Positions 160-51,440 of a stretch of 64,000 nt of DNA are shown one piece after another (the stretch's first letter is position 1; each line of letters begins with the position of its first letter). The notes under the pieces are model-generated. The model had not been told where the DNA came from, searched no databases, and was given only the letters and a program-made list of their open reading frames with translations. The DNA is from Dictyostelium discoideum. Its lineage: Eukaryota. A program made the position numbers and the translations under genes. The stretch is from positions 288,001-352,000 of the forward strand of contig CM000151.3 of the NCBI GenBank assembly GCA_000004695.1. Reading direction: 5' to 3'.

Positions 160-400
160 TTAATTATTTTAAAGTAATTTCATTGTTTACTCATCAAAAC
201 CTATTGATAATAGTAAAGGTCTTGGTGGTGGTGGTGGTGGTCGATTACATAAAGAACCTATTTTAATTTATTAATATTTATTTGATAATATTTTCATCAC
301 CATTAACATCAATTAGATATTATAAAATTTAATATCTATAGTCCAAAACTATTAATAATCCATATTTCACAATAATATTATGAAAAAATAAAAATTAATT
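160..400 (+). pseudogene. C-terminal remnant of a paralog-array family member (internal deletion, stops)
   Basis: Matches ...DFIVYSSK..GGGG..RLHKEPI..YLFDNIF.SPLTSIR.Y.....NPYF of the intact copies, but is interrupted by stops and lacks the N-terminal 500 aa. Confidence 0.5.
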
Positions 401-472
401 ATTATCCAAAAAAAAAAAAAAAAAAAATTTAACATTGGTCAAACCCACTCTTTATAATTTAAACAAATAATA

Positions 473-2452
473 ATGTCAACAAGTAAAAAAATTAAAACAG
501 ATAATAATAATAAAATATTTCAAGATGTTATTGATTTTGAAATTTTAAAATCTATTATCAATTATTTATTAATCAGTAAAAAAAATAATAAAAATAATAA
601 TACTATTAATCAATATAAAATTAGTAAATTTTATTTAAATAGAAATGAAATATTAAATTATATATTAGTTTCAAAAAAGTGGTATAATTTTATATCATTA
701 ACAATATCAAATAATATTATTAATAATAAATCATTTGAACATTGGTTAGAAATTAATTATAATAAAAATAAATCATTTACTGAAAATTATAATAATCAAA
801 ATCAATATGATAAAAATAATTTAGTTTTTTATAGTAAAGATGATGGTGAATTCTATGTACATAAACATAATAATATTAGTTTTAATAAAGAGTTTTCAAT
901 TATAAAAATCAAAGAATCAATAATCAATGATTATCTCAAAAACAATTTATTTTTAGATAAAATTACAATTGATGATTTTAAAGAAATTAAAAATAAATTT
1001 GAAAATAATCAATTACTTTATAATAGAATTGTAGTTAATTTTTGTCGTAATAATGATGATACACAAATGACAACATATAAATATGGTGAAGTTCATTATT
1101 TTAAAGATCAATATAAAATTTTATTTAAAATACATGAATATGTATCAAATGAAAATTCAGAAACCATATCAAATTTATTTAAAGTGTTAGAATTAAATCA
1201 TGATTTTGAGTTGGATAAAATTTATAATCCAAAATCTGAAAAGGATAATAAAGGTAATAAGAAACCTACTACTGAATTATATTTAAATAGTTTATCAATT
1301 GTTGGTTATGATTGGAGTAAAGATGAGGATGATGATGAAGAAACAGTAAAGATATTCAAAATTTTCAAAGGTAAGAATTTAATTTATGATGGTTCCGATA
1401 TTCAGCATGAAATTTCAACACATGTCAATTATTCAGCATTATTTGACCCAGATAACTCAGGTCAACAAGTTGAATCAATTAAAGTAAAAAGTGAACGTGG
1501 TAATGATGAGTATGTCGAAGCACGTCATTTAATTAAAATTAATCAATTTGAAAATTTACATTCAATTACAATACCAATTAATTCATTTCAAATATTATCA
1601 AACTTATCCGATGATAAAATGGTATTTTATCAGTTTCATAGATATGATACAGATCCAGACAATTCAGATAATATGAAATCAGAATTAAATCAAATGATCA
1701 ATTCACTCATCACATGTAAATCTTTAAAGAATTTAAAAATACTATGTGTAAATTCAAAAAACTATTCAATTGATTTTGAAAGATTGGTTGGTGGTGATAA
1801 AGTTTCGCCTTATGAAATAAATAAAACTATAGAATCATTTTCAAATTCATTTAAACCATTATTTTCAGAATTAAATTCATCAATTGAAAGAATTGAATTT
1901 GATTGTATGGGTTTATTAAATATCAATACATTTTCAAATTTATTAAATAATAAATCAATTAAATATTTATATTTATATGATGATAGTGATTTCTTTGTTT
2001 ACTCTTCAAAAGCAAGTGATAATGGTGGTGGTAATGAATTACATAAAGAACCTATTTCAATTAATCAATATTTACTTGAGAATATTTTTTCATCACCATT
2101 AACATCAATCAGGCATTATAGAATTTGTTTCAGAGAATCAAAACAATTAAAATTCATATTTAATTTAATATTAAATAATATTTTTAAATTACATTTATAT
2201 TCATTAATATTTGAATTCTGTGAAAACGAAATAGTTGGTGAATTTGTTAAAGAATATAAAAATTTAATAAATAATATTTCAACACAACAACAACAACAAG
2301 AAGAACAACAAAAATCAAACAACATCAATTTAAAAGAAATTAAAATTAAAATTATAACTCCATTTGAATATGAAGAATATATTCAAGAATTGAATAATAT
2401 TAATAATCCATATTTCGCAACAGTAATAAAGAAAATAATTACTGATTGTTAG
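473..2452 (+). CDS. Paralog-array family member 1 (659 aa, intact): F-box-like N-terminus with polyN linker
   Basis: Intact 1980-nt ORF in about 78% AT DNA. The N-terminus FEILKSIINYLL..(polyN)..NEILNYILVSKKWYNFISLTISN resembles an F-box split by a low-complexity insert. It has the invariant ALFDPDNSGQQVESIKV and the C-terminal NPYFATVIKK shared by all copies. The conserved leader CTCTTTATAATTTAAACAAATAATA lies directly 5' of the ATG. Confidence 0.75.
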   Translation: MSTSKKIKTDNNNKIFQDVIDFEILKSIINYLLISKKNNKNNNTINQYKISKFYLNRNEILNYILVSKKWYNFISLTISNNIINNKSFEHWLEINYNKNKSFTENYNNQNQYDKNNLVFYSKDDGEFYVHKHNNISFNKEFSIIKIKESIINDYLKNNLFLDKITIDDFKEIKNKFENNQLLYNRIVVNFCRNNDDTQMTTYKYGEVHYFKDQYKILFKIHEYVSNENSETISNLFKVLELNHDFELDKIYNPKSEKDNKGNKKPTTELYLNSLSIVGYDWSKDEDDDEETVKIFKIFKGKNLIYDGSDIQHEISTHVNYSALFDPDNSGQQVESIKVKSERGNDEYVEARHLIKINQFENLHSITIPINSFQILSNLSDDKMVFYQFHRYDTDPDNSDNMKSELNQMINSLITCKSLKNLKILCVNSKNYSIDFERLVGGDKVSPYEINKTIESFSNSFKPLFSELNSSIERIEFDCMGLLNINTFSNLLNNKSIKYLYLYDDSDFFVYSSKASDNGGGNELHKEPISINQYLLENIFSSPLTSIRHYRICFRESKQLKFIFNLILNNIFKLHLYSLIFEFCENEIVGEFVKEYKNLINNISTQQQQQEEQQKSNNINLKEIKIKIITPFEYEEYIQELNNINNPYFATVIKKIITDC

Positions 2453-3224
2453 AAAATAAAAAATAAAAAATAAAAAAAAAAACAAAAAAAAATATTTCTA
2501 ATATTAATACATGTATGCATAGAGTTTTTATTCTAACATTCAATTTTTGTTTTTGGCGAAGTGTTAAATTAAAATACTTATAGGCTATCTCTTTGATGAA
2601 AGGAATTGTTATCCTTCTCTTGCCAAGTTTGTTTTAATTATAATACTATTGGAATGTGAAGATAGTGATAAATTATTATATGGTAGCAGTGATTTTGGAA
2701 TATGGAGATGATGGTGATAATAAAGATTTTTGGTTGAAAAAGATGGTGAAACTTTGTGAAGTTGTTGATAGATCTTTTAAACCTAAACTTTGCATATTGG
2801 AATAGCTGATGTTATTGAACAAAATACATTACCTCTAAAACCAAATAATTATGTTTGAACCACCAAATAAACTAGTTCCAAAGCTTGAAATTGTAAATAA
2901 TAGACCACCAATTGGTTGAGTTGAATCACATAGAAATCCACCATAGTAGTTGTTGATTGATGAGCCATGAGTAAATTGGTAGATGCCAATTCGAAGATGC
3001 TCCACTAGGTGATTATTGTATTGAAGCGAACAATTCCCAAGTGATACATATCAAGCAGTTAATACATCATCAGATTCACCATTCTCTTCAGACAATTCAA
3101 TTGTTAAATCATGTTTCAGGAACATTAGATTATCAAAACTTAGGTTTATCAACATTCTATGAAATTGGTACCATTGTTTGGATTGATTCAAATAACAATG
3201 ATAAATTCGAACAACCACGTGATT

Positions 3225-3884
3225 GTCCCATGCCAAAATTATCATATTAATTTCAGCAGCCATATTAATTTTGGCATGGGACTTATGTCTGCCAAAATTA
3301 CCGTATTAATTTCAGCATGTACATAGCAGCCAAAATTAATAAGGTAATTTTGGCATAGAAAAAAAAAAAAGTCAAAGTCATTTAATTAATAATCATCTCA
3401 AATATAAACAAAATTTTAGTACTAAAATTATTATTATTATTTTTATTATAATAATTATAATAAAAAAAAAAAAAAAAAAATTTCATATTATTTTATTTAT
3501 ATCTTTTATTTATTTTTATCTTTTTATTTTTATTATTAATTTTATAATTTATTTTCATTTCTTTTTTTTAGTTGATGTATATTTTTTTATTATTCATTTA
3601 TGTCTACGTTCTAATAAAAAAAATATACACAAAAAAAAAAAAAATTAAAAATAAAAAAAAAAATAAATTGAAGGCACTCATATACTGTCTTCCCAAATAA
3701 CATGTTTTTCAATGTTTTTATACAAATCAGAATTATTTTAAAATAAATTTATGGGATTCTTTTTTTTGTTAATCAAGCAAAATAACGCAGGTATCTCAAT
3801 CAGTCACTTTTCTAAATATTAATTTTTTATTATTAAATCATTATATAATTAAATTAATTAAAATAATTAAAAAAAAAATAAAAA

Positions 3885-3920
<36 letters not shown>

Positions 3921-4420
3921 GAATGAAATGGAATAAAATAAATTAAAAAAAAGAAATACAGAAATTAAAGAAACTTATTTCGAAATTGTTTAAACAATCA
4001 TACAGTTTAAAATTAAATAAATTGTTTTAAACCACCACTTTTTTTGAACACATGAAAATAAATAAGAAATAAAAATAAAAAGATAAAAAAAGATTTGTTT
4101 TTATTTTTTTTTATTTTATAATTATTCTTGTCGTCAGTATTGTTACTATTAATTAATCCCATGAGTTTTTTATTATTATTATTTTTAATTCTTTTATATT
4201 TGAGATGATTATTATTAATTAAATGACTTTGAGTTTTTTTTTTTATTTTTCTATGCCCAAAATTACCATATTAATTTCAGCCTAAAATAGGTGGTCTGTG
4301 CATGCCAAAATTAATATGGCTGCTGAAATTAATATGGTAATTCTAGCAGACATAAGTCCCATGCCAAAATTATCATATTAATTTCAGCAGCCATATTAAT
4401 TTTGGCATGGGACACGTGAT
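3225..4420. mobile_element. MITE-like non-autonomous element (P element family) with complex palindromic termini
   Basis: The same 58-bp palindrome GTCCCATGCCAAAATTATCATATTAATTTCAGCAGCCATATTAATTTTGGCATGGGAC sits at both ends (3225-3282 and 4366-4420). Subterminal modules (CTCAAATATAAA..AATGACTTTGA..CTATGCC) are in inverted orientation at 3340-3420 versus 4190-4265. The interior is AT-rich and non-coding. Related ends occur at 11760-11885, 19690-20155, 45890-46030, 60020-60500 and 61930-62215. Confidence 0.6.
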
Positions 4421-4740
4421 ATCGGAAAATCACATGCATCAATTACATTAACCAACAATGGCAATGGTGAAACATCAACAATTCCAACAGATGTTGATGG
4501 AGCAGTAGTGGTTGATGATTACAAATTTTTATCCGTTAATTGTGGTTATAAAGTGTTTTTAATTTCAAATATTATATATAAAAAAAATAAAATTTTAAAA
4601 AAAACCAATTTGTAAAATACATTATAAAAAACAAATAATAATTATGTAACTATATGTAAAATAAACTTTTCAAATAAATAATATTAAAAATTATAGAAAG
4701 AAATTTTTAAGTTATCAATTTTCATTATTTTTTTTTTTAC

Positions 4741-4920: not shown

Positions 4921-5844
4921 TATCAACATTGAATCTACTACAGATATTGATATTATTATTATTTAATTTTTGTGAAAGAAATGTCACGGAGGTGAACCTG
5001 TTTCTTCTTATTTGATTCTATACTTCTTAGTTGATAAAGAGTGTGGACCTGTAGTTTAAGTTAGTAGGTAGTGGTGGTAAAACTTGATGGCATCGTGTAA
5101 AGGATGATACAGTATGAGTGGTTGTTGATGCAGAACGAGTTGAAGCCTTTGTCAAAGTTGTGTATATCAAATGATGCGAATACTCTATTAGTTTGAACGA
5201 TGCTATTGTAAACTACTAAATCAGTGTAAGCTGTACATTTGGTAAGTGGCGTAATAATTGAACTTTGTGACATTGTGTAAAAGAGATCGTTGACATAGTG
5301 ACCTTGTGGTGTGAGGGTTCATTTGATTTTGTATAGAGCAAAGCCATACTAATAATACATTGTGGTGTGAGGGTCAATTGAGTTGGAAATTAATTTGTTT
5401 TATTATCGAACCTGATGCTTTCTACTATTAACACTACTTCTGGATTTAGTGTGATACCTATCCACTTTTACTATTACAATTACATGAAGTTCATGATAAT
5501 TTTAGGTTTTTTGATTTTGCTGATGGATATTGATGATCTTCTTCTTTGGTGAACACAGGATCATAGGTTCCCCGTCATTTTTTGAAAATGGGGCCCATCC
5601 CCTTAAAATAAAACCATATGCTAAAATTTATCCCTTTTTACATCCAATGTTGAATTAATTATCGAGGAAATAGGTGACCTGCTTTTCATTTCTATCTTCT
5701 GCTATGTATCAAAATTGTACCAAGATTAAATTGATCACTTGGGTTTCTATTGTTGTTTGGTGCTGACAGAAACCATTAAATCAGATTGTTGATCCGTTTT
5801 ATCTCTTCTTTACCACCACCAATACTTGATTTGCCGCAAGTAGT

Positions 5845-6213
5845 TTATGGTGCACCATGAGTAGCTGATGGAACAGTAGTGGTTGATGATGCAAAATGAG
5901 AAGTTAATGGACCAATAGAAGTTGATGGTGTTGCATGAGTAGTTGATGGACCAGTGGAAGTTGATGATGTAACATGAGTAGTTGGTGAATCAATGGAAGT
6001 TGATGATACAGTATGAGTATTTGATGGACCAGTGGAAGTTGATGATGTAACATGAGTAGTTGATCTACTACTACCACTACTACCACTACAACTACTGCTA
6101 CTATTAATACTAATACTAATACTATTACTAATACTAATACTAATACTAATACTAATACTAATACTAATACTAATTCTACTATCTTTACTATTCATTCCAA
6201 TTGGTGTTATCAT
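5845..6213 (-). repeat. Ser/Thr-rich mucin-like tandem-repeat ORF (TTHVTSSTSTGPS units, poly(IS) run); probably part of a repetitive element
   Basis: 122-aa ORF of imperfect 13-aa repeats. Related Thr/Ser/Pro-coding segments lie at 4440-4520, 31240-31500 (frameshifted) and 37640-37740, each beside the hairpin repeat. Confidence 0.35.
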
Positions 6214-6764: not shown

Positions 6765-8618
6765 ATGTCAACAAATAAAAAAATAAAAACAGATAATAAT
6801 AATAAAATATTTCAAGATATTATTGATTTTGAAATTTTAAAATCTATAATCGATTATTTATTAACCAGCAAAAAAAATAAAAATAATAATAATATTAATA
6901 ATAATCAATATATAATTAAAAAATTTTATTTATATAGAGATGAAATATTAAATTATATATTAGTTTCAAAAAAGTGGTATAATTTTATATCATTTACAAT
7001 ATCAAATAATATTATTAATAATAAACTATTTGAACATTGGTTAAAAACTAATTTTAGTAATAATTCATTTATTGAAAATTATAATAATCAAAATCAATAT
7101 GATAAAAATAATTTAATTTATAATAACATAGAAGATAAACAATATAAAATTAGTTTTAATAAAGAATTTTCAATTATAAAAATCAAAGAATCAATAATCA
7201 ATGATTATTTTAAATTCAATTTATTTTTAGATCATTTTACGATTGACGATGATTTTAAAGAAATTAAAAATAAATTTGAAAAAAATCAATTACTTTATCA
7301 TAGAATTGTAGTTAGTGTTGATACTGATAATTATGGGTTTCCTAGTGATATTTTATTTACAATACATGAATATGTATCAAATGAAAATTCAGAAATCATA
7401 TCAAATTTATTTAAAATATTAGAATTAAATTTTGATTTTTGGTTGGATTACGGATATTGTCCACGTTCTGAAGAGGAGGATGATGAAGGTAATAAAAAAT
7501 GTAGAGAAATATATTTAAATAATTTATCAATTGCTGGTTATAATAGAGAAGTAGGTGAAGATGAAGAAACATTAAAGATATTCAAAATTTTCAAAAGTAA
7601 AAATATAATTTATGATGGATCCAATATTGATGAAAGTGATACTCCAACACATATCGATTATTCAACATTATTCGATCCAGATAATTCAGGTCAACAAGTT
7701 GAATCAATTAAAGTAAAAAATGAATATGGTAATGAAGCACGTCATTTAATCAAACTTAATCAATTTAAAAATTTACATTCAATTACAATACCAATTAATT
7801 CATTTCAAATATTATCAAACTTATCTGAAGAAATGGGATTTTGTAAGTTATATCGTACGATATATTCAGGTGATTCAGATAATATGAAATCAGAATTAAA
7901 TCAAATGATTAATTCATTCATTACAAATAAATCTTTAAAGTATTTAAATATATCATCTGTAAATTCAATATACACTCTTCCAATTAAAAATTATGATGGA
8001 GGTTATCATGAAATTTTTTTTAATAAAATAAATAAAACTATAGAATCATATTCAAATTCATTTAAACCATTATTTTCAGAATTAAATACATCGATTGAAA
8101 GAATTGAATTTGATTGTATGGGTTTATTAAATAATAAATCAATTAAATATTTATATTTATATGATAGTGATTTCATTGTTTATTCATCAAAACAAAAAGG
8201 TAATGTTAGTGGTATTCGATTACATAAAGAACATATTTCAATTAATCAATATTTATTTGATAATATATTTTCATCACCATTAACATCAATTAGACATTAT
8301 AAAATTAAATTCATAGAATTAAATCAAATCAAATTCTTATTTAATTTAATATTAAATAATATTTTTAAATTACAATTATATTCATTAATATTTGAATTCA
8401 ATGATAGCGAATTAATTGGTGAATTTGTTAAAGAATTTAAAAACTTAATAAATAATATTTCAACACAAGAACAACAAAAATCAAATAACATAAATTTAAA
8501 AGAAATTAAGATTAAAATTCAAGATGTTAATATTGATAAATATATTCAAGAATTAAATAATATTAACAATCCATATTTTACAACAATAATAAAGAAAAAA
8601 GCTAATAATGATGATTAA
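6765..8618 (+). CDS. Paralog-array family member 2 (617 aa, intact)
   Basis: Same architecture and motifs as 473..2452. The conserved leader ...CTCTTTATAATTTAAACAAATAATAATG is present upstream. Confidence 0.75.
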   Translation: MSTNKKIKTDNNNKIFQDIIDFEILKSIIDYLLTSKKNKNNNNINNNQYIIKKFYLYRDEILNYILVSKKWYNFISFTISNNIINNKLFEHWLKTNFSNNSFIENYNNQNQYDKNNLIYNNIEDKQYKISFNKEFSIIKIKESIINDYFKFNLFLDHFTIDDDFKEIKNKFEKNQLLYHRIVVSVDTDNYGFPSDILFTIHEYVSNENSEIISNLFKILELNFDFWLDYGYCPRSEEEDDEGNKKCREIYLNNLSIAGYNREVGEDEETLKIFKIFKSKNIIYDGSNIDESDTPTHIDYSTLFDPDNSGQQVESIKVKNEYGNEARHLIKLNQFKNLHSITIPINSFQILSNLSEEMGFCKLYRTIYSGDSDNMKSELNQMINSFITNKSLKYLNISSVNSIYTLPIKNYDGGYHEIFFNKINKTIESYSNSFKPLFSELNTSIERIEFDCMGLLNNKSIKYLYLYDSDFIVYSSKQKGNVSGIRLHKEHISINQYLFDNIFSSPLTSIRHYKIKFIELNQIKFLFNLILNNIFKLQLYSLIFEFNDSELIGEFVKEFKNLINNISTQEQQKSNNINLKEIKIKIQDVNIDKYIQELNNINNPYFTTIIKKKANNDD

Positions 8619-9223
8619 AAAAAATTATCTATATCTAAATTATTCATTTTTCATCCAACTATTTATTTTTTTTTTATTTTTTTTTTTTCAAGTTTTATTT
8701 GGATAAAATTAAATAAAATATTTTTTTTATTTATTTTTTTTTTTTTAGTTTCAAACTGTCACACCTGAATAAAAAAAATAAATGAAAAAACCCTCCCTCT
8801 TTATAATTTTTACAAATAATAATAATATCAACAAATTAAACAGACAATTATAATTTACAAAAAAAAAAAAAAAAAAAAAAAAAAATGGAAAAAAGAAAAC
8901 ATTTTTTTTTTTTAATTATTTCTAATTATTTTTAGAATTTAAACACTTTTATACACCTTATTATATTTTAAAATTTAAATTATTTAAAATGAGTGAATTA
9001 GGGGCAAAAAACGAAAAAAAAAAAAGAATTTCTTGCATAAAAAATATCTTTCTCAAATTTTTTTTTTTTTTTTTTATTTTATTTCATTTTTATTTTTATT
9101 TTATTTTTTATTTTATTTCATTTTATTTTTTTTTCCCAAAAAAAACCTTGTTTGAACCAAACAAATACTGTAACACACAAAAAAAAAAAATTGTAAACAT
9201 CTTTAATGGGTGCGACCATAAAT

Positions 9224-9662: not shown

Positions 9663-11516
9663 ATGTCAACAAATAAAAAAATAAAAACAGATAATAATAA
9701 AAAAATATTTCAAGATATTATTGATTTTGAAATTTTAAGATCAATAATTAATTATTTATTAATCAGCAAAAAAAATAAAAATAATAATAATAATACTAGT
9801 AATCAATATAAAATTAATAAATTTTATTTAAATAGAGATGAAATATTAAATTATATATTAGTTTCAAAAAAGTGGTATAATTTTATATCATTAACAATAT
9901 CAAATAGTATTATTAATAATAAATTATTTGAACATTGGTTAAAAATTAATTATAATAATAAATCATTTATTGAAAATTTTAATAATCAAAATCAATATGA
10001 TAAAAATAATTTAATTTCTAAAAACAAAAAATATAAACAAAATAAAATTAGTTTTAATAAAGAGTTTTCAATTATAAAAATCAAAGAATCAATAATCAAT
10101 GATTATTTTAAATTCAATTTTTTTTTAGATTATATTACAATTGATGATTTTAAAGAAATTAAAAATAAATTTGAAAATAATCAATTACTTTATAATAGAA
10201 TTGTAGTTAATGGTAGTTATGAAGGGGAAGTTTTATTTGGAATACATGAATATTTATCAAATGAAAATTCAGGAGTTATTTTAAATTTATTTAAAATATT
10301 AGAATTAAATCATGCTTTTAATTTATATTATAAACCAAAATCTGAAGAGAAGGATGAGGAGGATGGTCATGATGATAAAGGTAATAAGAAATGTACTGAA
10401 ATATATTTAAATAGTTTATCAGTTTTTGGTTTTGATGAAGGTGAGGGTGAAGTTCAAACATTAAAGATATTCAAAGTTTTCAAAGGTAAAAATTTAGTTT
10501 ATGATGGATCTGAAGAAGATCCTGATTTTCAAACACATATCAATTACTCTGCATTATTTGATCCAGATAGCTCAGGTCAACAAGTTGAATCGATTCAAGT
10601 ACAAAATAAATATGATAATGAAGAGTCAGTCGAAGCACGTCATTTAATCAAAGTTAATCAATTTAAAAATTTACATTCAATTATAATACCAATTAATTCA
10701 TTTCAAATATTATCAAACTTATCTAAAGAAATGGGATTTATTAGTTCCCATGGTTATGAAGAATATTCAGGAAATTCAGAAAATATGAAATCAGAATTAA
10801 ATCAAATGATCAATTCAATCGTTACAAGTAAATCTTTAAAGAATTTAAAAATAACATCTGTAAATTCAATATATTATCCAATTGATTACAAAGCTTTTTA
10901 TGATGGTGATCTTGAAACCCTTACTAATAAAGTAAATGAAACTATAGAATCATTTTCAAATTCATTTAAACCATTATTTTCAGAATTAAATACATCAATT
11001 GAAAGAATTGAATTTGATTGTATGGGTTTATTAAATATCAATACATTTTCAAATTTATTAAATAATAAATCAATTAAATATTTATATTTATATAATAGTG
11101 ATTTCATTGTTTTTTCACCTAAAAAAAGAGGTGGTCCATTTCATAGAGAACCTATTTCAATTAATCAATATTTATTTGATAATATATTTTCATCACCATT
11201 AACATCAATTAGACATTATAAAATTAAATTCATAAAATCAAATGAATTAAAATTCATATTTAATTTAATATTAAATAATATTTTTAAATTACAATTATAT
11301 TCATTAATATTTGAATTCAATGAAAACGAATTAATTGGTGAATTTTTTAAAGAATATAAAAATTTAAAAAATAATATTTCAACACAACAACAAAAATCAA
11401 ATAACATAAATTTAAAAGAAATTAAAATTAAAATTAAAGATGATGAATATATTCAAGAATTAAATAATATTAATATTCCATATTTCACCACAACATTAAT
11501 AAAGAAAATAACCTAA
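9663..11516 (+). CDS. Paralog-array family member 3 (617 aa, intact)
   Basis: Paralog with the same N-terminal F-box-like motif, ALFDPDSSGQQVESIQV core and IPYFTTTLIKKIT end. Conserved leader upstream. Confidence 0.75.
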   Translation: MSTNKKIKTDNNKKIFQDIIDFEILRSIINYLLISKKNKNNNNNTSNQYKINKFYLNRDEILNYILVSKKWYNFISLTISNSIINNKLFEHWLKINYNNKSFIENFNNQNQYDKNNLISKNKKYKQNKISFNKEFSIIKIKESIINDYFKFNFFLDYITIDDFKEIKNKFENNQLLYNRIVVNGSYEGEVLFGIHEYLSNENSGVILNLFKILELNHAFNLYYKPKSEEKDEEDGHDDKGNKKCTEIYLNSLSVFGFDEGEGEVQTLKIFKVFKGKNLVYDGSEEDPDFQTHINYSALFDPDSSGQQVESIQVQNKYDNEESVEARHLIKVNQFKNLHSIIIPINSFQILSNLSKEMGFISSHGYEEYSGNSENMKSELNQMINSIVTSKSLKNLKITSVNSIYYPIDYKAFYDGDLETLTNKVNETIESFSNSFKPLFSELNTSIERIEFDCMGLLNINTFSNLLNNKSIKYLYLYNSDFIVFSPKKRGGPFHREPISINQYLFDNIFSSPLTSIRHYKIKFIKSNELKFIFNLILNNIFKLQLYSLIFEFNENELIGEFFKEYKNLKNNISTQQQKSNNINLKEIKIKIKDDEYIQELNNINIPYFTTTLIKKIT

Positions 11517-11936: not shown

Positions 11937-12050
11937 CTATTTCTTTATTACTGTTGTGAAATATGGAATATTAATATTATTTATTTCTTGAATATATTCA
12001 TTATCATTAGTTTCAATTTTAATTTCTTTTAAAGTAATGTTATTTGATTT

Positions 12051-12126
<76 letters not shown>

Positions 12127-13916
12127 ATTGAAATATTATTTATTAAATTTTTAAATTCTTTAACAAAATCACAAACTAATTCGTTTTTATTGAATTCAAA
12201 TATTAATGAATATAATTGTAATTTAAAAATATTATTTAATATTAAATTAAATATGAATTTTAATTGATTTAATTCATTCAATTTAATTTTATAATGTCTA
12301 ATTGATGTTAATGGTGATGAAAATATATTATCAAATAAATATTGATTAATTGAAATAGGTTCTTGATGTAATTCATTACCGCTATAACTTGGTTTTGAAG
12401 AGTAAACAATGAAATCACTACCATATAAATATAAATATTTAATTGATTTATTATTTAATAAATTTGAAAATGTATTGATATTTAATAAACCACAACAATC
12501 AAATTCAATTCTTTCAATTGATGTATTTAATTCTGAAAATAATGGTTTAAATGAATTTGAAAATGATTCTATAGTTTCGTTTATTTTATTAGCAAAAATT
12601 TCATGATCAGCTCCCTTACAATCACGATAATATAAACCTTCATAATCAATTGGAGAATATTTTGAACTTACTGATGAGATATTTAAATTCTTTAAAGATT
12701 TACTTGTAATAAATGAATTGATCATTTGATTTAATTCTGTATTAATATTTTCAGAGTTACCCGATTCTGATTTACTATTATAAAATCTAATAAATCCCAT
12801 ATCCTCAGATAAGTTTGATAATATTTGAAAAGAGCTAATTGGTATTGTAATTGAATGTAAATTTTCAAATTGATTAACTTTGGCTAAATGGAGAGGTTCA
12901 ACAAATTCATCATTATCAGGTTCAATTTGTACTTTAATTGATTCAACTTGTTGACCTGAATTATCTGGATCAAATAATGCTGAATAATTGACATGTGTAG
13001 GCATATCACTACAAGTATCAGATCCATCATAAAATATATTTCTACCTTTGAAAATTTTGAATATCTTTACTGTTTCTTCATCATTACCTACTTCTCCATC
13101 AAAACCTGCAATTGATAAATTATTTAAATATAATTCAGTACATTTCTTACCACCTTTATCAGTATCATGATCACCTTCCTCCTCTTCAGAGTTTGGGCTA
13201 TAACCATTATCCAAACAAAAATCAATATTTAATTCTAATATTTTAAATAATTTTGATATGACTTCTGAATTTTCATTTGATACATATTCATGTATTCTAA
13301 ATAAAGTTGTTTTATTATTATTACTATCATAATCAGCATCAACATTAACTACAATTCTATTATAAAGTAATTGATTATTTTCAAATTTATTTTTAATTTC
13401 TTTAAAATCATCAATTGTAATCTTATATAAAAATAAATTGATTTTAAAATAATCATTGATTATTGATTCTTTGATTTTTATAATTGAAAACTCTTTATTA
13501 AAACTAATTTTATTTTGTTGATAATTATAATCTTCATCTTTAAAAATTAAATTATTTTTATCATATTGATTTTGATTATTATAATTTTCAATAAATGATT
13601 TATTTTTATTATTATAATTAATTTTTAACCAATGTTCAAATAATTTATTATCAATAATATTATTTGATATTGTTAATGATATAAAATTATACCACTTTTT
13701 TGAAACTAATATATAATTTAATATTTCATTTCTATAAAAATAAAATTTATTAATTTTATATATATTAATAGTATTATTATTTAAATTATTATTTTTATTT
13801 TTATTTTTTTTGCTAGTTAATAAATAGTTGATTATAGATTTTAAAATTTCAAAATCAATAATATCTTGAAATATTTTATTGTTATTATTTGTTTTTATTT
13901 TTTTACTTGTTGACAT
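11937..13916 (-). CDS. Paralog-array family member 4 (659 aa, intact), the only inverted copy; carries a (CAA)n-encoded polyQ tract of about 26 Q
   Basis: Intact ORF on the minus strand with the family motifs. A (TTG)n/(CAA)n microsatellite at 12050-12125 encodes QQQ...Q just before the C-terminal SNNITLKEIKI motif. Confidence 0.75.
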
Positions 13917-19620: not shown

Positions 19621-19689
<69 letters not shown>

Positions 19690-38163: not shown

Positions 38164-38201
38164 AATAATAATGTCAACAAATAAAAAAATTAACCAGCAA
38201 A

Positions 38202-38234
<33 letters not shown>

Positions 38235-38440
38235 TATAATAATAATAGTAATAATAATAATAATTATACTTCTAATAATATAAAATTAGTAAATAATATT
38301 AATCAATATAAAATTAGTAAATTTTATTTGAATAGAAATGAAATATTTAATTATATATTAGTTTCAAAAAAGTGATAATTTTATATCATTAACAATATCA
38401 AATAACATTATTAATAATAAATCAACAAACCCGCTTGCAT
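38164..38440 (+). pseudogene. Family N-terminal fragment with internal deletions and stops
   Basis: Leader ACTCTTTATAATTTAAACAAATAATAATGTCAACAAATAAAAAAATTAACCAGC... skips part of the N-terminus. The ILVSKKW motif is disrupted (..AAAAAGTGATAATTT). Confidence 0.5.
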
Positions 38441-38564
38441 AAAATTTAATAAAAATAAAATATAAAAAAAAAATAAAATAAAAATTTCTAAAAGTTTGGC
38501 AAACAAAAAAAAAATAAGTTTTTTATTCAAAACATACTCTTTATAATTTTTAAAACAAATAATA

Positions 38565-38675
38565 ATGTCAACAAATAAAAAAATTAAAACAGATAATAAT
38601 AATAATAATAAAATATTTCAAGAAATTATTGATTTTGGAATTTTAAAATCTTTAATCGATTATTTATTAATCAAC

Positions 38676-38746
<71 letters not shown>

Positions 38747-40345
38747 TAATAATCACAATACTAGTAATCAATATAAAATTAATAAATTTTATTTAAATAG
38801 AAATGAAATATTAAATTATATATTAGTTCAAAAAAGTGGTATAATTTTATATCATTAACAATATCAAATAATATTATTGATAATAAATTATTTGAACATT
38901 GGTTAAACATTAATAATATTAGTAATAAATCATTTATTGAAAATTATAATAATCGAAATCAATATGATAAAAATAATTTAATTTCTAAAAACAAAGAAGA
39001 TAATCATAATAAAATTAGTTTTAATAAAGAGTTTTCAATTATAAAAATCAAAGAATCAATAATCAATGATTATTTTAAATTCAATTTATTTTTATATAAG
39101 ATTACAATTGATAATTTTAAAGATATTAAAAATAAATTTGAAAATAATCAATTACTTTATAATAGAATTGTTGTTAATGTTGATACTGGTTATGATGAAG
39201 AGAATCTAGATGAAATTTTATTTAGGATACATGTGTATCAAATGAAAATTCAGAAATCATATCAAATTGATTTAAAATATTAGAAAAAAATTATGATTTT
39301 ATGGTAATCGATGGTTATAATACAAACTCTGAAGAGGAGGAGGAGGATAAAAGTAATAAGAAATGTACTGAAATATATTTTAATAATTTATCAATTGTAG
39401 GTTTTGATACAAATATAGGTGAGGATAGAGAAGCAGTAAAGATATTCAAAATATTCAAAAGTATAAATATATTTTATGATGGGACCTTTCTTAATGCTAT
39501 TCCAACACATGTCAATTATTCAGCATTATTTGATCCAGATAATTCAGGTCAACAAGTTAAATCAATTATAGTACAAATTGGACGTGAAGAATATTCTGAT
39601 TTTGTTGAACCACGTCATTTAATCAAAGTTAATCAATTTGAAAATTTACATTCAATTACATTTTCAATCAATTCATTTCAAATATTATCCAATCTATCGA
39701 AAGAAATGGGATATTTTAGTTTCAAATGTATAAAATCTGATTTTGGTAATTCAGATAATATCAAATCAGAATTAAATCAAATGGTAAATTCAATCATTAC
39801 AAGTAAATATTTAAAGAATTTAAAAATAACATCCATTAATACAGAAAAACATCCAATTGATTATGATACTTATTATGATTATGGTGAACCTCAAGCTTTT
39901 GTTAATAAAATAAATGAAACTGCAGAATCATTTTCAAATTCATTTAAACCATTATTTTCAGAATTAAATACATCAATCGAAAGAATTGAATTTGATTGTA
40001 TGGATCAATACATTTCAAAATTATTAAATAATAAATCAATTAAATATTTATATGATAGTGATTTCATTGTTTACTCATTAAAACCAAGTGGTGGTGCTGG
40101 TGGTGCTGATGGTAGTCAAGTACATAAAGAACCTATTTCAATTAATCTATATCTATTTGATAACATATTTCCATCACCATTTACATCAATTAGACATTAA
40201 AGAATTAAATTCAAAGAATCAAAACAATTAAAATTCATATTTAATTTAATATTAAATAATATTTTTAAATTACCATTATATTCATTAATATTTGAAGAAT
40301 TAATTAATATTAATAGTCTATATTTCAAAATAGTAATAAAGAATA
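38565..40345 (+). pseudogene. Family member with multiple frameshifts (ORF pieces 38565..38858 and 39301..40200 plus a shifted C-terminus); contains a very long (AAT)n polyN tract
   Basis: The N-terminal ORF breaks at ILVQKSGIILYH (versus ILVSKKWYNFIS), resumes in another frame, and after the stop at 40200 continues as RIKFKESKQLKFIFNLILNNIFKL. Confidence 0.6.
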
Positions 40346-40675: not shown

Positions 40676-42047
40676 TTAAAGTTCAATTTTTGGTTCCCAA
40701 CCTAACATGGTAACATCACAATTTTTCACCTTTGGATGAGTGAGTTGTTGTTTATATTTTGGAGTTCTGTAAACAAAAGTTTCAAATGGGAAATTTGTTA
40801 AAGGAGTATCAAAAAGGTATAAATTAACTGATTGTGGTATTTCACTTTTTTCTTGATTAAATCCATCTAATAAAAACCAATTGGAAACACAATTTGGTAT
40901 TGAACCTTTTAATAATGGTTTTTTAATTGCACCAACGAGCAGATATGTAATTGATTCTGGTAGCATACCTTTTGTTAGTTGAATATTGAATCCATCAAGT
41001 AATAGTAAAAATTGAACCGATGTTGGAATTGAACCTATTTCAATTGTTTTAACACTTGGTGCAATCGCTACACGAATAGTACCTTTTGGAATGACAGAAT
41101 CATTTTTATAAAAAAAATATTCATATCCTAAAACTGTATATAATAATTTAATATTAATAAAATAATTTAAATAAACAAAACCACAATTATTATTATTGTA
41201 GTTTTATTTTTTCAAAATATTTACCAGTAACTCTTTTTGGATCCTTTACATTTGTAATAGAGGGGGAATCTCTAATTTCAAATATTTCTTTAATTGAATT
41301 TTTAACTTGTTCACTATTTACAATATTTACATTTTTATATTGATTCATTAATTCTTTGATTTTATTAACATTTTGATTATCTTTTATTAATAGTTGTGAT
41401 TGGTGACAATGTTTTAACATTTCAATATGTTGATAACTATTATTATTATTGTTTTTATTATTATTAATGATTTCATCAATATTTATTTGATTTATTGTAT
41501 TTTTATATTTATTTGTAATTAAATTAATAATATTTAAATTATCATGTATAGTGGTTGAAATATTTGTATTGGTATCTTTATTTTCATCATAGATTGTTAC
41601 TAATTGTTTGATTTTATCAATTTCAATGATTTGTAATAATTTGGAGAGTTCTTTAAATTCTTCTGTGATTGTATTTACATTTTCAGTGTGTTTATCTTCT
41701 AATGATTTAAATAAATTATTTGATTCTTTCAATAGCTCATTATTGATACCGATTTGGTTATTTAAATTTTGAAGGTGATTATTTTTGAATTCTTCAAAGA
41801 TTGCTTTTGAATTCTCTACATCTATATGATCAAATTTATGACCAATATGACCTGAAACAATACAATCATTACATACTACTGTCTGTTATAATTGTAATAA
41901 TATGAATGAAAATAATTAGTAAGAATTACTTTTTTTTTATTTATTAAAATGTAGAATAATAACTACCTTACAGGTTGAACAAATCAATTTAATATCATAC
42001 TCTTTATGTATTGAACATTTGTTATCATATTTATTTATATTATCCAT
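40676..42047 (-). CDS. B-box zinc-finger + FNIP-repeat protein, 3 exons (42047..41967, 41882..41225, 41127..40676), about 396 aa
   Basis: Exon 1 MDNINKYDNKCSIHKEYDIKLICSTCK plus exon 2 TVVCNDCIVSGHIGHKF gives a C-x2-H-x7-C-x2-C-x4-C-x2-C-x4-H-x2-H B-box. A coiled-coil-like N/K-rich middle. Exon 3 has FNIP-type repeats (IPTSVQFLLLLDGFNIQLTKGMLPESITYLLVGAIKKPLLKGSIPNCVSNWFLLDGFNQEK..IPQSVNLYLFD). Introns 41883..41966 and 41128..41224 have GT..AG ends and keep the frame. Confidence 0.6.
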
Positions 42048-45148: not shown

Positions 45149-46140
45149 ATGTCAACAAATAAAAAAGTTAAAACAGATAATAATAATAAAATATTTCAAG
45201 ATTTAATTGATTTTGAAATTTTAAGATATTTAATCGATTATTTATTAATCAGCAAGAAAAATAAAAATAAAAATAAAAATAATAATCAATATGAAATTAA
45301 TAGATTTTATTTTAATAGAAATGAAATATTAAATTATATATTAGTTTCAAAAAAGTGGTATAATTTTATATCATTAACAATATCAAATAATATTATTGAA
45401 AAAAAATCATTTGAACATTTGTTAGAAATTAAAAATAATAATAAAAAATCATTTATTAAAAATTATAATAATCAAAATCAATATGATAAAAATAATTTAA
45501 TTATCAAGGATCTATATTAGTTTTAATAAAGAGTTTTCAATTATAAAAATCAAAGAATCAATAATCGATGATTATTTAAAATTTAATTTATTTTTATATG
45601 GCATTACAGTTAATGATTTTAAAGAAATTAAAAAGAAATATATTTGATAATAATCAATTAGTTTATAATAGAATTGTATTTGATGTTTACTAATGATACA
45701 GATTATGATTATGGTGATTATAGTATTTTATTTAAAATACATAAATATGTATCAAATGAAAATTCAGAAATCATATCAAACTTATTTAAAATATTATAAT
45801 TAAATTTCGATCCTTTTTTAACCACTGGTTATAGCCCAAAATCTGAACATGATGAAAGTTATAAGAAATGTAGTGAAATATATTTTAATAAATTATCAAT
45901 TATGGGTTCTGATAGAGATATTAATATGGTAATTTTAGACTCCTGAAATTGATATGGATGCAAATTAAATTAATATGGCTGCTGAAATTAATATGGCTGC
46001 TTAAATTAAATTAATATGGATGCAAATTAATAAATAAATAAATAAAAAAAAAAAAAAAAAAAAATTTAATTTATAAAAAAATTTAGAATAATATTCATAA
46101 TCCATTTTTCAAAACAATAATAAAGAATAACAAATAATAA
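45149..46140 (+). pseudogene. Family member with frameshifts, a large internal deletion and an inserted palindromic-MITE fragment (45890-46030)
   Basis: ORF 45149..45520 has the family N-terminus, then breaks (..NNLIIKDLY*). The remaining frames carry KESIIDDY, NQLVYNRIV and SNENSEIISNLFKIL. A C-terminal NPFFKTIIKNNK stub lies at 46090-46140. Confidence 0.6.
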
Positions 46141-46484: not shown

Positions 46485-48395
46485 ATGTCAACATATAAAA
46501 TTAAAATAGATAATAAAATATTTCAAGATCTTATTGATTTTGAAATTTTAAGATCAATAATTAATTATTTATTAACCAGCAAAAAAAATAAAAAAAAAAA
46601 TAGTACTAATAATAGCAATACTAGTAATCAATACAAAATTAATAAATTTTATTTTAATAGAAATGAAATATTAAATTATATATTAGTTTCAAAAAAGTGG
46701 TATAATTTTATATCATTAACAATATCAAATAATATTATTAATAATAACTTTTTTGAACATTGGTTAAAAATTAATAATAATAAATCATTTATTGAAAATT
46801 ATAATAATCAAAATCAATATGATAAAAATAATTTAATTTTTAATAACAAAGGTCGTAAACAATATAAAATTAGTTTTAATAAAGAGTTTTCAATTATAAA
46901 AATCAAAGAATCAATAATCAATGATTATTTTAAATTCAATTTATTTTTAAATAATATTACAATTTATGTTTTTAAAGAAATTAAATACAAATTTGAAAAC
47001 AATCAATTACTTTATAATAGAATTGTAGTTAATATGGATACAAATTATGGTGAAGGGAATAAAGATGAAATTTTATTTAAAATACATAAATATGTATCAA
47101 ATGAAAATTCAGAAATCATATTAAATTTATTTAAAATATTAGAATTAAATCATGATTTTATGATAACCCATCTTCCGGGTTCTGAAGAGGTGGAGGATGA
47201 AGGTAATAAGAAATGTACTGAATTTCATTTAAATAATTTATCAATTTGTTGTTTTGATAGATGTGTAGGTGAAGATAGAAAAACATTAAAGATATTCAAA
47301 AATTTCAAAGGTAAAAATATAATTTATGATGGACCCAATGTTACTTATGATATTACAACATATATCGATTATTCAGTATTATTTGACCCAGACACTTCAG
47401 GTCAACAAGTTGAATCTATTAAAGTAAAAAATGAATATGAGGATTGTGCTAATTTTGTTGAAGCACGTCATTTAATCAAAGTTAATCAATTTGAAAATTT
47501 ACATTCAATTAAAATACCATTGAATTCATTTCAAATATTATCAAACTTATCTGAAGAATTGGGGTTTGATGGTTTCGATTGTTTTAAATCAGATTTTGGT
47601 TATTCAGATAATATGAAATCAGAATTAAATCAAATGATAAATTCATTTATTACAAGTAAATCTATAAAGAATTTAAAAATAACATCCATTATTTCAACAG
47701 AAGATTCTCCAATTGAATATCATACTTCTTGTGATGAAAGTAATATTCAAACTTTTATTAATAATATAAATGAAAGTAAAGAATCATTTTCAAATTCATT
47801 TAAACCATTATTTTCAGAATTGAATACATCAATTGAAAGAATTGAATTTGATTGTATGGGTTTATTAAATATCAATACATTTTCAAAATTGCTAAATAAT
47901 AAATCCATTAAATATTTATATTTATATGATAGTGATTTCATTTTTTATTCACTAAAACCAACTGGTGGTGATAGTGATGATGATGATGATGATGATGGTG
48001 ATGGTGGTAGTGCAGTACTTCAAGAAACTATTTCAATTAATCAATATTTATTTGAAAATATATTTTCATCACCATTAACATCAATTAGACATTATAAAAT
48101 TAATTTCAAAGAATCAAAACAATTAAAATTCATATTTAATTTAATATTAAATAATATTTTTAAATTACAATTATATTCATTAATATTTGTATTCAATGAT
48201 AACGAATTAATTGGTGAATTTGTTAAAGAATTTAGAAATTTAATTAATAATATTTCAACACAACAACAACAAAAATCAAATAACATAAATTTGAAAGAAA
48301 TTAAAATTGAAATGTATGATGAAAACTATTTCCAAGAATTAAATAATATTAATAGCCCATATTTCAAAACTGTAATAAAGAATTACCAATATTAA
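46485..48395 (+). CDS. Paralog-array family member (636 aa, intact); variable region is a poly-Asp run (SDDDDDDDGDGGS)
   Basis: Intact ORF with the family motifs (LFDPDTSGQQVESIKV, SPYFKTVIKNYQY). Confidence 0.75.
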   Translation: MSTYKIKIDNKIFQDLIDFEILRSIINYLLTSKKNKKKNSTNNSNTSNQYKINKFYFNRNEILNYILVSKKWYNFISLTISNNIINNNFFEHWLKINNNKSFIENYNNQNQYDKNNLIFNNKGRKQYKISFNKEFSIIKIKESIINDYFKFNLFLNNITIYVFKEIKYKFENNQLLYNRIVVNMDTNYGEGNKDEILFKIHKYVSNENSEIILNLFKILELNHDFMITHLPGSEEVEDEGNKKCTEFHLNNLSICCFDRCVGEDRKTLKIFKNFKGKNIIYDGPNVTYDITTYIDYSVLFDPDTSGQQVESIKVKNEYEDCANFVEARHLIKVNQFENLHSIKIPLNSFQILSNLSEELGFDGFDCFKSDFGYSDNMKSELNQMINSFITSKSIKNLKITSIISTEDSPIEYHTSCDESNIQTFINNINESKESFSNSFKPLFSELNTSIERIEFDCMGLLNINTFSKLLNNKSIKYLYLYDSDFIFYSLKPTGGDSDDDDDDDGDGGSAVLQETISINQYLFENIFSSPLTSIRHYKINFKESKQLKFIFNLILNNIFKLQLYSLIFVFNDNELIGEFVKEFRNLINNISTQQQQKSNNINLKEIKIEMYDENYFQELNNINSPYFKTVIKNYQY

Positions 48396-50296: not shown

Positions 50297-50470
50297 ATGT
50301 CAACAAATAAAAAAGTTAAAACAGATAATAATAATAAAATATTCCAAGATATTATTGATTTTGAAATTTTAAGATCTATTATCAATTATTTATTAACCAG
50401 CAATAATACTAGTAATAATAATAATAGTAATCAATATAAAATTAAAAAATTTTATTTAAATAGAAATGAA
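50297..50470 (+). pseudogene. Family N-terminal fragment truncated by insertion of the hairpin-repeat element
   Basis: Leader + MSTNKKVKTDNNNKIFQDIIDFEILRSIINYLL...KIKKFYLNRNE. It ends where the repeat sequence GCAGGTATCTATTGG... begins, followed by the reverse copy of the 4741-4920 hairpin repeat at 50555-50640. Confidence 0.55.
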
Positions 50471-50872
50471 AAAGCAGGTATCTATTGGTTAGATAAGCAT
50501 TCACTGATTTAGTCGATAATATTAAGATTGATGAATATAAAAAGAGATAAATTTTAGCATATAGCTTTTTATTTTAAGGGATAGGCCCCATTTTCAAAAA
50601 ATGACGGGGAACCTATGACCCTGTGTGCACCAAATACAGTAGGTTACTATGTCAACGATCTCCTTTACACAATGTCATCACCACATTCAACTTATTATGA
50701 GGCCACTGACACACCCAAAGGTACAACTTACTTTGTTTTAGTAGTTACAATAAAATTGTTCAAATTAATACACAAAATGATATGAAATATAAAAAAAATG
50801 AATATTATAATTCTATTTTTAGAATTTTTTTTTTTTTTTTAATTTATTATCATAAAAACATTTTTGGTTGTG

Positions 50873-50908
<36 letters not shown>

Positions 50909-50948
50909 AACATTAACCAGTCAGGTACGCTCTATAAACAAAATATAA

Positions 50949-51039
50949 TGTCAACAAGTAAAAAAATTAAAACAGATAATAATAATAAAATATTTCAAGA
51001 TCTTATTGATCTATAACCAATTATTTATTAACCAGCAAA

Positions 51040-51109
<70 letters not shown>

Positions 51110-51440
51110 TTTCTTTTTAAAGTTGAAAAAAAAAAAAAAAGGTATGCTACAAGAAATCAAAAAATTCTTCGAAAATTAATGAAGTTTTTTTACATTATAT
51201 AATGATAAGGAATTAGTTGATGAATTTATTAAAGAATTTAAAAATCTAATAAATAATATTTCAACAAAACAAGAACAAAAATCAAGAAACATATTTTTTA
51301 AAGAAATTTCTTTACGTATTAATATGATTCAATTCTTCTAAATACGTAAATAAGTATTTAGAAGAATTGAATCATATTAATAATCCATTTTTCAAAACAA
51401 TAATAAAGAGTTACCAATTACAATACAAAACTATCAGTAA
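50949..51440 (+). pseudogene. Family member with a massive internal deletion (N-terminal 20 codons fused to a C-terminal tail)
   Basis: ATGTCAACAAGTAAAAAAATTAAAACAGATAATAATAATAAAATATTTCAAGATCTTATTGAT, then (AAT)n, then ...ELVDEFIKEFKNLINNISTKQEQKS...LEELNHINNPFFKTIIKSYQL. Confidence 0.5.

Follow-up and report, generated by a model that had tools for sequence, protein, structure and literature searches.

The 64,000-nucleotide stretch of Dictyostelium discoideum AX4 chromosome 2 analyzed here (contig CM000151.3, positions 288,001 to 352,000; hereafter the window), with a G+C content of 14 to 30% (about 80% A+T), contains 15 copies of one gene family. The array very probably represents a Dictyostelium-specific, tandemly expanding subfamily of F-box/leucine-rich repeat (LRR) proteins that serve as substrate receptors of SCF (Skp1-cullin-F-box) complexes. 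The F-box, with helix 1 separated from helices 2 and 3 by a loop, would dock on Skp1, and a solenoid of about 460 residues, built of LRRs of the RNI/FBXL type, would hold the substrate. The family would evolve by birth and death, as genes duplicate in tandem and decay in a stretch where transposons also collect, its reading frames held open by selection and the average constraint on its proteins relaxed (a ratio of nonsynonymous to synonymous substitution rates, dN/dS or omega, of about 0.46). The loops between repeats would vary mostly by slippage of trinucleotide repeats, the N-terminal 120 or so codons would be kept alike at the DNA level, presumably by concerted evolution, and a few percent of sites, mainly in LRRs 2 to 5, appear to be diversifying, a component that has statistical support but is sensitive to recombination and alignment.

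Listing of open reading frames (ORFs) and tblastn searches recover eight long ORFs of 572 to 698 amino acids (aa), called c1 to c8 in order along the window, and seven decayed pieces. Fourteen of the 15 copies lie on the forward strand, c4 alone being inverted. These counts match those of a preliminary description made from the sequence, and the conserved blocks quoted there are all present in the alignment of the copies. E values among family copies are 0.0, which excludes chance, and the eight proteins of the window show 69 to 78% identity to c2, which is 100% identical to DDB_G0271412 of AX4 chromosome 2. Other gene names were likewise given to copies by exact or near-exact match to database proteins or, for c4, by the loop sequence. 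All eight long ORFs had been described as intact, which holds except at the C terminus of c6, lost through a frameshift, with the remainder lying in another frame at 31034-31114. The AX4 array extends upstream of the window (DDB_G0271406 and DDB_G0271408).

At the DNA level, the copies are 72 to 85% similar over the ORF, some 50 to 150 bp upstream, and some 10 to 120 bp downstream. Because similarity ends this near the ORF, the duplicated unit is the gene with a short leader rather than a segmental repeat of any length. The leader, CACTCTTTATAATTTAAACAAATAATAATG (30 nt), had been thought to precede every copy; it occurs exactly at 446, 6738, and 38144 and with 1 mismatch at 9636, but in the remaining copies only the 15 to 20 nt next to the ATG and the first codons align with it. 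A leader-like sequence with 4 mismatches also lies at 8795-8824 (+), 180 bp 3' of c2, with ATA in place of the ATG and no ORF after it, and may be all that is left of a deleted copy. These boundaries bear on the idea that a self-copying mobile element carries the repeated unit as its cargo. The number of copies, the transposon remnants between them, and a family member on chromosome 1 (DDB_G0269084) are in keeping with such an origin, but the similarity stops just outside the ORF, no terminal repeats surround the unit, Pfam finds no transposase or reverse transcriptase domain in the protein, and the modeled fold is that of a standard cellular F-box/LRR protein, which together make the idea extremely improbable.

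The preliminary description had read the two conserved N-terminal segments as an F-box split by a low-complexity insertion, and this reading stands. Removal of the loop improves the Pfam F-box match to E values of 0.004 to 0.02, and with the loop trimmed to 2 residues, PF00646 is matched by 17 of 17 diverse members (best E value, 4.6e-6) and PF12937 by 13 of 17 (best E value, 1.2e-6). All 17 rejoined sequences pick the F-box from 24,736 Pfam families. The loop-trimmed c2 reaches 20.6 bits where the gathering score is 20.5, a result that rests on an edited sequence. When a profile of the rejoined region was compared with PDB sequences, 12 were returned at E values up to 10, and 11 of these were F-box proteins, among them Dia2 (0.043), Skp2 (0.045), KDM2A (0.18), Cdc4 (1.7), and FBXO42 (2.3), all weak E values. 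Helix 1 corresponds to IFQDIIDFEILKSIIDYLL and helices 2 and 3 to EILNYILVSKKWYNFIS, and the loop between them, of 18 to 68 residues, is partly polyasparagine. Remote relatives recovered by exhaustive profile search keep the canonical Leu-Pro of the F-box (e.g., KIFPDYLDFEIIKSIINYLL) and share the insertion, so the split is ancestral to the whole group-4 family and not a recent polyasparagine accident. Across species, no part of the protein is better conserved than helices 2 and 3 (LVSKKW...), and a short linker with an invariant SIIKI motif joins the F-box to the LRR solenoid.

Structure prediction agrees with this layout. In a first AlphaFold run, which used close paralogs only, the N terminus had a predicted local distance difference test (pLDDT) value below 50; a second run, to which remote relatives were added, gave a model of c2 (617 aa, intact, 6765-8618 [+]) with a pLDDT of 80.6 and a predicted template modeling (pTM) score of 0.78. 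Its N-terminal helices are predicted at residues 16 to 33, 51 to 65, and 69 to 85, mostly in blocks with pLDDT values of 84 to 92; helix 1 starts lower, with block means of 68 and 88, and the loop is of low confidence. On the DNA, helix 1 (residues 16 to 33) occupies 6810-6863 (+) and helices 2 and 3 (residues 51 to 85) occupy 6915-7019 (+), the low-complexity loop (residues 34 to 50) lying between them, and the solenoid, from about residue 150 to residue 617, spans 7212-8615 (+). The solenoid is modeled as LRRs of the RNI/cysteine-containing (FBXL) type. Between the first model and the second, matches to F-box/LRR proteins gained in Z score and in aligned residues, that to FBXL2 rising from a Z score of 10.6 over 235 aligned residues to 13.8 over 292, a comparison that holds at the level of models only. 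As modeled, the protein belongs to the FBXL type of F-box/LRR proteins, its F-box being interrupted by a loop. It shares with FBXL receptors (human FBXL2, FBXL17, and Skp2; plant COI1, TIR1, and MAX2; yeast Dia2) a three-helix F-box followed by an RNI/cysteine-containing-type solenoid, a reported association with Skp1, and, once the loop is removed, the F-box signature. Unlike those receptors, it has Gln where they have a conserved Pro, an insert of 18 to 68 residues between helices 1 and 2, no native Pfam match to an LRR or F-box, and no sequence relatives outside group-4 Dictyostelium. Identity as an FNIP-repeat LRR protein was considered and rejected, since PF05725 matches no family member in Pfam searches.

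Association of some members with Skp1 has been published. Figure S3 of Boland et al. (2022, J Biol Chem; PMC9485057), in which sequences that resemble an F-box are aligned, some from global BLASTp predictions and some from proteins recovered together with Skp1, lists seven members of the family: DDB_G0271202, DDB_G0271418, DDB_G0271434, DDB_G0347826, DDB_G0271408, DDB_G0271404, and DDB_G0271228. The first four lie in the window as c3 (617 aa, intact, 9663-11516 [+]), c5 (660 aa, intact, 21490-23472 [+]), c8 (636 aa, intact, 46485-48395 [+]), and c4 (659 aa, intact, the sole inverted copy, 11937-13916 [-]), and the other three lie just outside it. In that figure, 6 of the 7 carry a flag for coimmunoprecipitation (co-IP) with Skp1 from vegetative and/or slug cells; c5 and c8 are flagged in both vegetative and slug co-IPs, and c3 in three separate ones. 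For most of the seven the figure draws the insert between helices 1 and 2, and it marks five as "LRR+," the domain having been assigned by Swiss-Model; the alignments of individual genes put some loops elsewhere, e.g., in DDB_G0271418 and DDB_G0271434. On account of this figure, the F-box reading and the Skp1 association of half of the window's intact copies are already in print, and the family is already partly catalogued, as Skp1 interactors. Docking of the F-box on Skp1 is thus backed by co-IP for the seven listed members (PMC9485057, Fig. S3), and we infer it for the others. In the available parts of that paper, the members are separate entries in a list, with no description of a family, a tandem array, copy number variation, pseudogenes, or selection. 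The literature search found the family's gene ids in no paper text, only in that supplementary figure; a life cycle proteome supplement contained none of the family's UniProt ids, the available part of a 2025 genome paper on tgr genes (PMC12745789) makes no mention of the family, and all members still bear the database name "hypothetical protein."

Several results weigh against an SCF receptor. The native proteins match no Pfam family above threshold, the best being an F-box half-match to PF00646 (E value, 0.14; 12.6 bits), and a full-length family profile compared with PDB sequences returned no F-box or LRR protein, only a chance lectin match. The F-box matches depend on a loop removal that was itself guided by the F-box model. 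In the expanded discoideum subfamily, the Pro of the F-box "LP" is replaced by Gln. The Skp1 association is a proteomic one, from co-IP with mass spectrometry in a supplementary figure, for paralogs that are about 70% identical. On these grounds, the copies might instead encode LRR proteins whose F-box, with its degenerate LP motif and long insert, does not work, the recovery with Skp1 being indirect or nonspecific and the proteins acting outside the SCF complex. The failure of native sequences to reach any Pfam threshold and the purely proteomic nature of the co-IP evidence fit this alternative, but the unanimous choice of the F-box by the 17 rejoined sequences, the almost exclusive return of F-box proteins from the PDB, the conservation of helices 2 and 3 above the rest of the protein across species, and the listing of seven paralogs as Skp1 interactors, one of them in three co-IPs (PMC9485057, Fig. 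S3), render it quite improbable.

The reading frames of the F-box/LRR copies have not stayed open by chance. When the family consensus was mutated neutrally to the divergence of each copy under the observed substitution spectrum, 7 to 13 stop codons per copy were expected, and no stop-free sequence arose in 300 trials per copy, indicating that the frames are kept open by selection. Estimates of the strength of constraint depend on the method. Nei-Gojobori counting yields a dN/dS of about 0.92 with apparent windows above 2, a value biased by a base composition of about 80% A+T and rejected in favor of a codon model with F3x4 frequencies and kappa, which gives 0.36 to 0.56. These maximum likelihood pairwise values accompany a joint omega of 0.46, with a likelihood ratio test (LRT) statistic of 59 against an omega of 1, and copies from a wild isolate replicate the result (0.44 to 0.62). 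Purifying selection is clear in residues 286 to 378 (omega, 0.09 to 0.25) and residues 429 to 515 (omega, 0.2 to 0.3). Among 40-codon windows, none was significantly above 1, the highest, at 2.1, not being significant. Whole-gene diversification, with the acidic and polyglutamine (polyQ) cassettes at its center, is thus not supported in the form first suggested, although by the refuting conditions set out in the preliminary description the observation itself is not refuted.

Synonymous rates vary 5- to 10-fold along the gene, and this variation changes the meaning of the "conserved scaffold" noted in the preliminary description. The ratio of observed to expected synonymous differences, corrected for amino acid composition, is 0.23 to 0.34 over residues 57 to 175, 1.75 over residues 286 to 378, and 2.4 over residues 568 to 617, with nonoverlapping bootstrap intervals. 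Within residues 57 to 175 (6933-7289 in c2), synonymous divergence is 3 to 10 times below that in the rest of the gene and dN/dS is near 1. Because both rates are low and omega is near 1, the N-terminal "invariance" is largely homogenization at the DNA level and not protein constraint; part of the scaffold is thus conserved at synonymous sites too. We infer that the module from F-box helices 2 and 3 to SIIKI has been homogenized across the family by concerted evolution, for which the mechanism could be gene conversion or a constraint at the RNA or DNA level. A GENECONV-like pairwise scan detected one globally significant tract (c7-c8, residues 490 to 521; P = 0.01), which lends weak support, the N-terminal homogenization being family-wide and not pairwise.

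Site models were fitted, with an implementation written by the authors, to 11 coding sequences, eight from the window and three from a wild isolate. The LRT of M2a against M1a gave 164, and this test was rejected as it stands: it assumes one synonymous rate in a gene along which the rates vary, which inflates it, and the statistic falls to 23.7 when synonymous-rate variation is allowed. In the dual-rate grid mixture (FUBAR-like), twice the log-likelihood difference (2dlnL) for a class with beta above alpha was 23.7, compared with at most 9.2 over 24 parametric null replicates. With the gene cut into four and a separate tree used for each part, the signal was strongest in residues 176 to 300 (2dlnL, 16.6; null maximum, 3.2), weaker in residues 1 to 175 (8.1; null maximum, 3.3), and within the null range in the remaining two. 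Candidate sites with dN above dS include residues 211, 226, 234, 237, 289, 290, 293, and 297. A few percent of sites, mainly in LRRs 2 to 5 (residues 176 to 300), thus appear, on evidence that is suggestive but drawn from few sequences, to be under diversifying selection, so that the earlier claim of diversification survives for this small class of sites but not for the gene as a whole. The same signal could arise from recombination among paralogs or from misalignment near indels, both only partly controlled, and to that extent tells against selection on these sites.

It is possible, if doubtful, that these are the same F-box/LRR proteins with all of their variation neutral: a redundant, decaying set in a region rich in transposons, its variable blocks shaped only by relaxed constraint and slippage and its dN-above-dS sites artifacts of gene conversion and misalignment. 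An overall omega of 0.46 with no window significantly above 1, the drop of the M2a statistic from 164 to 23.7, the decay of about half of the copies to pseudogenes both here and in a wild isolate, the evidence of recombination or homogenization, the simple-repeat nature of the cassettes, and the prevalence among candidate sites of I/V/T/F toggles, which recombination can mimic, are all as neutrality would have it. They are opposed by the clear maintenance of open frames by selection, by a dual-rate statistic that exceeds all parametric null replicates (and does so for residues 176 to 300 with partition trees as well), and by the expression of several members as proteins, recovered with Skp1 (PMC9485057, Fig. 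S3).

Among about 60 paralogs, entropy is low in F-box helices 2 and 3, in SIIKI, and in the C-terminal LRR strands (SIERIEFD, SIKYLYLY, SIRHYKI, LYSLIFEF, and LKEIKI). High-entropy, indel-rich blocks fall at residues 181 to 200, 221 to 250, 261 to 300, 361 to 370, 401 to 420, and 471 to 490, and apart from 221 to 250 and 281 to 300, these are mainly inter-repeat loops of lower model confidence. The C-terminal LRR strands are nearly invariant, and variation within strands is found only in the N-terminal repeats. What had been called hypervariable cassettes (E/D runs, polyQ, polyasparagine, and a DDCGID repeat) prove to be simple-sequence indels in the loops between LRRs: the acidic, Gly/Ser, polyQ, and polyasparagine tracts are trinucleotide or short-unit repeats. 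Such simple repeats are ordinary in Dictyostelium coding sequence. Three of the tracts also need correcting in length. The acidic repeat of c5, reported as threefold, is a perfect 33-bp (11-aa) unit (DDGGSDDCGID) repeated 2.7 times at 23001-23089; the run of nine Asp residues is a run of seven, at 47976-47996 in c8; and the (CAA)26 of c4 is a Q25 run, approximately (CAA)25, at 12051-12125. A second Q25 run, at 62900-62974 (-), lies outside the array in the unrelated flank.

The family is confined to a narrow set of species. Searches of 1.84 billion proteins matched 59 representative clusters, and all matches for which the source was looked up or named came from group-4 Dictyostelium, in agreement with the initial view of a lineage-specific family. 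D. purpureum, D. firmibasis, D. citrinum, and D. dimigraforme have 1 to 3 distant members each (24 to 33% identity), and the close family (above about 50% identity) occurs only in the discoideum clade. Within that clade, copy numbers differ widely. AX4 has about 14 family genes, counted from gene ids that include those of the 2022 paper; in clusters at 90% identity, one wild isolate (ACTFIW_010987-011136) has at least 45, another (ACTFIR) about 19, and two cryptic sister species 11 and 5. The proteins labeled ACTFIT are identical to those of AX4, which identifies the source as the AX2 laboratory strain. None of the 10 AX4 clusters looked up contains a wild-isolate member at 90% identity.

A wild-isolate locus of 22 kb (GCA_054859355.1 JBTAPG010000035.1:148253-170211) repeats this organization, with at least six copies on one strand, three of them intact and the rest broken or fused. 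Neighboring copies there are 79 to 85% identical to each other and at most 75% identical to any AX4 copy. The annotation of the isolate bridges frameshifts and fuses neighbors, as in "proteins" of 1013 and 1071 aa, so the member counts of the wild-isolate protein sets include pseudogenes. The distance to a contig end is about 318 kb for c2 in AX2 and about 150 to 170 kb for the wild-isolate locus. The compared wild isolates come from the tropics and have diverged genetically from AX4 (PMC12745789), and part of the turnover is therefore simply time. The inference of rapid evolution nevertheless holds, given the many pseudogenes, the large differences in copy number, and the absence of any AX4/wild partner at 90% identity or above among the copies checked.

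The preliminary description had gone further, suggesting a rapidly evolving substrate recognition or self/nonself family. In one form of the self/nonself idea, the array would be a private strain repertoire of SCF receptors that target polymorphic partners, for recognition of self, of kin or cheaters, or of pathogens. The strain-specific repertoire (no partner at 90% identity or above among the AX4 copies checked; about 14 genes versus at least 45 clusters), the tandem arrangement, the dN-above-dS sites in the LRR domain, and the association of some members with Skp1 in slug-stage cells (PMC9485057, Fig. S3) would suit such a role. We nonetheless regard it as improbable: a linked polymorphic partner is without evidence, the proteins look cytosolic with no apparent secretion or membrane features, unlike Tgr, some turnover reflects the divergence of the compared wild isolates from AX4, and the C-terminal LRR strands, including positions presumed to be exposed, are nearly invariant among about 60 paralogs, the opposite of classical recognition LRRs. 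A broader version, in which a strain-private, diversifying repertoire of SCF receptors would serve conflict by targeting polymorphic proteins of other strains (to control cheaters or kin when chimeras develop) or proteins of intracellular bacteria, giant viruses, or mobile elements, is likewise unlikely; it would have gene conversion keep the Skp1-docking module uniform while the N-terminal LRRs diversify.

Several known systems resemble the F-box/LRR array in part. In Genome Research in 2006, Thomas reportedly described expanded F-box families (nematode FBXA and others, and those of plants) and proposed adaptive evolution of their substrate-binding domains. These families appear to resemble the array in their tandem arrangement, rapid birth and death, many pseudogenes, strain- or species-specific repertoires, and an F-box that is conserved where the domain for substrate binding varies more. 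The Dictyostelium family differs in being much smaller, in showing modest positive selection over only part of the LRR domain, and in having the C-terminal LRR strands as its most conserved part. S-locus F-box genes (SLF/SFB) of the Solanaceae and Rosaceae are also clustered, and SLFs are thought to recognize subsets of polymorphic partners; this is a resemblance only, as SLFs carry FBA- or Kelch-type domains instead of LRRs and are defined by linkage to the S-RNase and by haplotype-specific alleles. The tgr genes (tgrB1 and tgrC1) are a rapidly duplicating, strain-variable family in the same genomes (PMC12745789), but Tgr proteins are transmembrane with immunoglobulin-like TIG domains and those of the array are soluble F-box/LRR proteins at another locus with another mechanism, and identity as tgr-like receptors was dropped for this difference between transmembrane and soluble proteins.

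The remaining copies are distributed along the forward strand as follows. A C-terminal fragment found by tblastn (about residues 468 to 514) at 173-329 precedes c1 (659 aa, intact, DDB_G0271214) at 473-2452, whose exact leader lies at 446-475. Downstream of c5 comes c6 (DDB_G0271424), the most diverged copy, at 29314-31114, with a 572-aa ORF that runs to 31032, and then c7 (698 aa, intact, DDB_G0271430) at 35360-37456. Three decayed copies separate c7 from c8: an N-terminal fragment at 38140-38486, found by tblastn and carrying the exact leader at 38144; a near-full-length pseudogene at 38565-40296, spread over three frames by at least two frameshifts, in which the polyasparagine loop has grown to about 30 Asn; and a truncated, frameshifted pseudogene of the N-terminal 260 or so residues at 45149-45922. 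Beyond c8 lie two N-terminal fragments, one of residues 1 to 60 at 50297-50470 with a leader-like sequence at 50270 and one of residues 1 to 22 at 50948-51013 (tblastn), and a C-terminal fragment in two frames (about residues 545 to 610) at 51198-51408 (tblastn).

The array had also been described as densely invaded by transposons. Several interspersed repeats are common to the intergenic regions between copies, and an inserted mobile element of about 5.4 kb at 23693-29055 separates c5 from c6, so the insertions are real, but the elements are only partly characterized. The large element is bounded by 243-nt inverted-repeat arms (23693-23935 and 28813-29055; 80% complementary) and contains an integrase core remnant at 26824-27234 (-) (rve_3; E value, 7e-4), an ORF encoding (GDLxG)n at 24674-25168, and internal 786-bp direct repeats (26121-26882 and 27687-28466; 94% identical), each with a tRNA T-arm-like sequence, GCGAGGTCCTGAGTTCGAATCC, and 12-bp microrepeats. 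It may resemble Dictyostelium DNA transposons of the Tdd-4/DDT class, which have integrase-like transposases. Ser/Thr/Pro-rich, coding-like 39-bp repeats occur between genes at 5842-6213 (-) (THVTSSTSTGPS) and 31199-31508 (+) (STTHATPSTTS), beside patches of higher G+C content, and could belong to a mobile element or be what remains of a mucin-like gene. Two ORFs lie between copies on the opposite strand, at 40676-40966 (-) and 41193-41732 (-); the first has an FNIP-repeat match near threshold (19.5 bits versus a cutoff of 21) and is probably a fragment of an FNIP/LRR gene.

Other features flank the array. An inverted segmental duplication joins 15582-20151 (-) with 53107-62200 (+), 90 to 98.6% identical and rearranged into several blocks, and carries both a second gene family (15584-16540 [-] against 55222-55680 [+] and following) and an ORF that measures 145 and 178 aa in its two versions (18767-19204 [-] and 61161-61697 [+]; start, MVRQLLKKCFILIKIKRKNWYPKDL). 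Related pieces at 3222-4422 indicate that part of the duplication may be a mobile element. The second family is represented by three copies or fragments, at 15584-16540 (-) (318 aa), at 55222-55680 (+) and following, and at 63450-63779 (+), which share the N-terminal motif IEPIEILFWKLFRNKAIYKKIFSFM and match no Pfam family above threshold; this second family is lineage specific as well. The sole tRNA gene in the window, tRNA-Val(AAC), lies at 59021-59095 (-) with repeats nearby. Among the frequent targets of retroelements in Dictyostelium are tRNA genes.

The choice of the proteins that a cell degrades is made by F-box proteins, and in plants and nematodes both immunity and barriers to mating have been connected with F-box families that are large and change quickly. 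For social conflict as well as for host-pathogen interactions, Dictyostelium serves as a leading model, and one of its F-box proteins, FbxA/ChtA, is already the product of a classic "cheater" gene. The array is a genuine lineage-specific expansion, of moderate interest, within a kind of protein that is already known. It unites about 14 "hypothetical proteins" on chromosome 2 as one Skp1-linked F-box/LRR family that is nearly wholly different between isolates, varies at least threefold in copy number, and shows a localized signal of diversifying selection. If the variation is neutral, the array would be a clean example, in a genome of extreme AT richness, of birth and death combined with partial concerted evolution, and a warning that simple counting of dN/dS is badly biased in such a genome. 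If it were a conflict repertoire, it would be an amoebozoan counterpart of the immune role proposed for the F-box expansions of nematodes and plants, and it provides a concrete locus for asking whether SCF receptors serve strain-specific or pathogen-directed recognition in amoebae.

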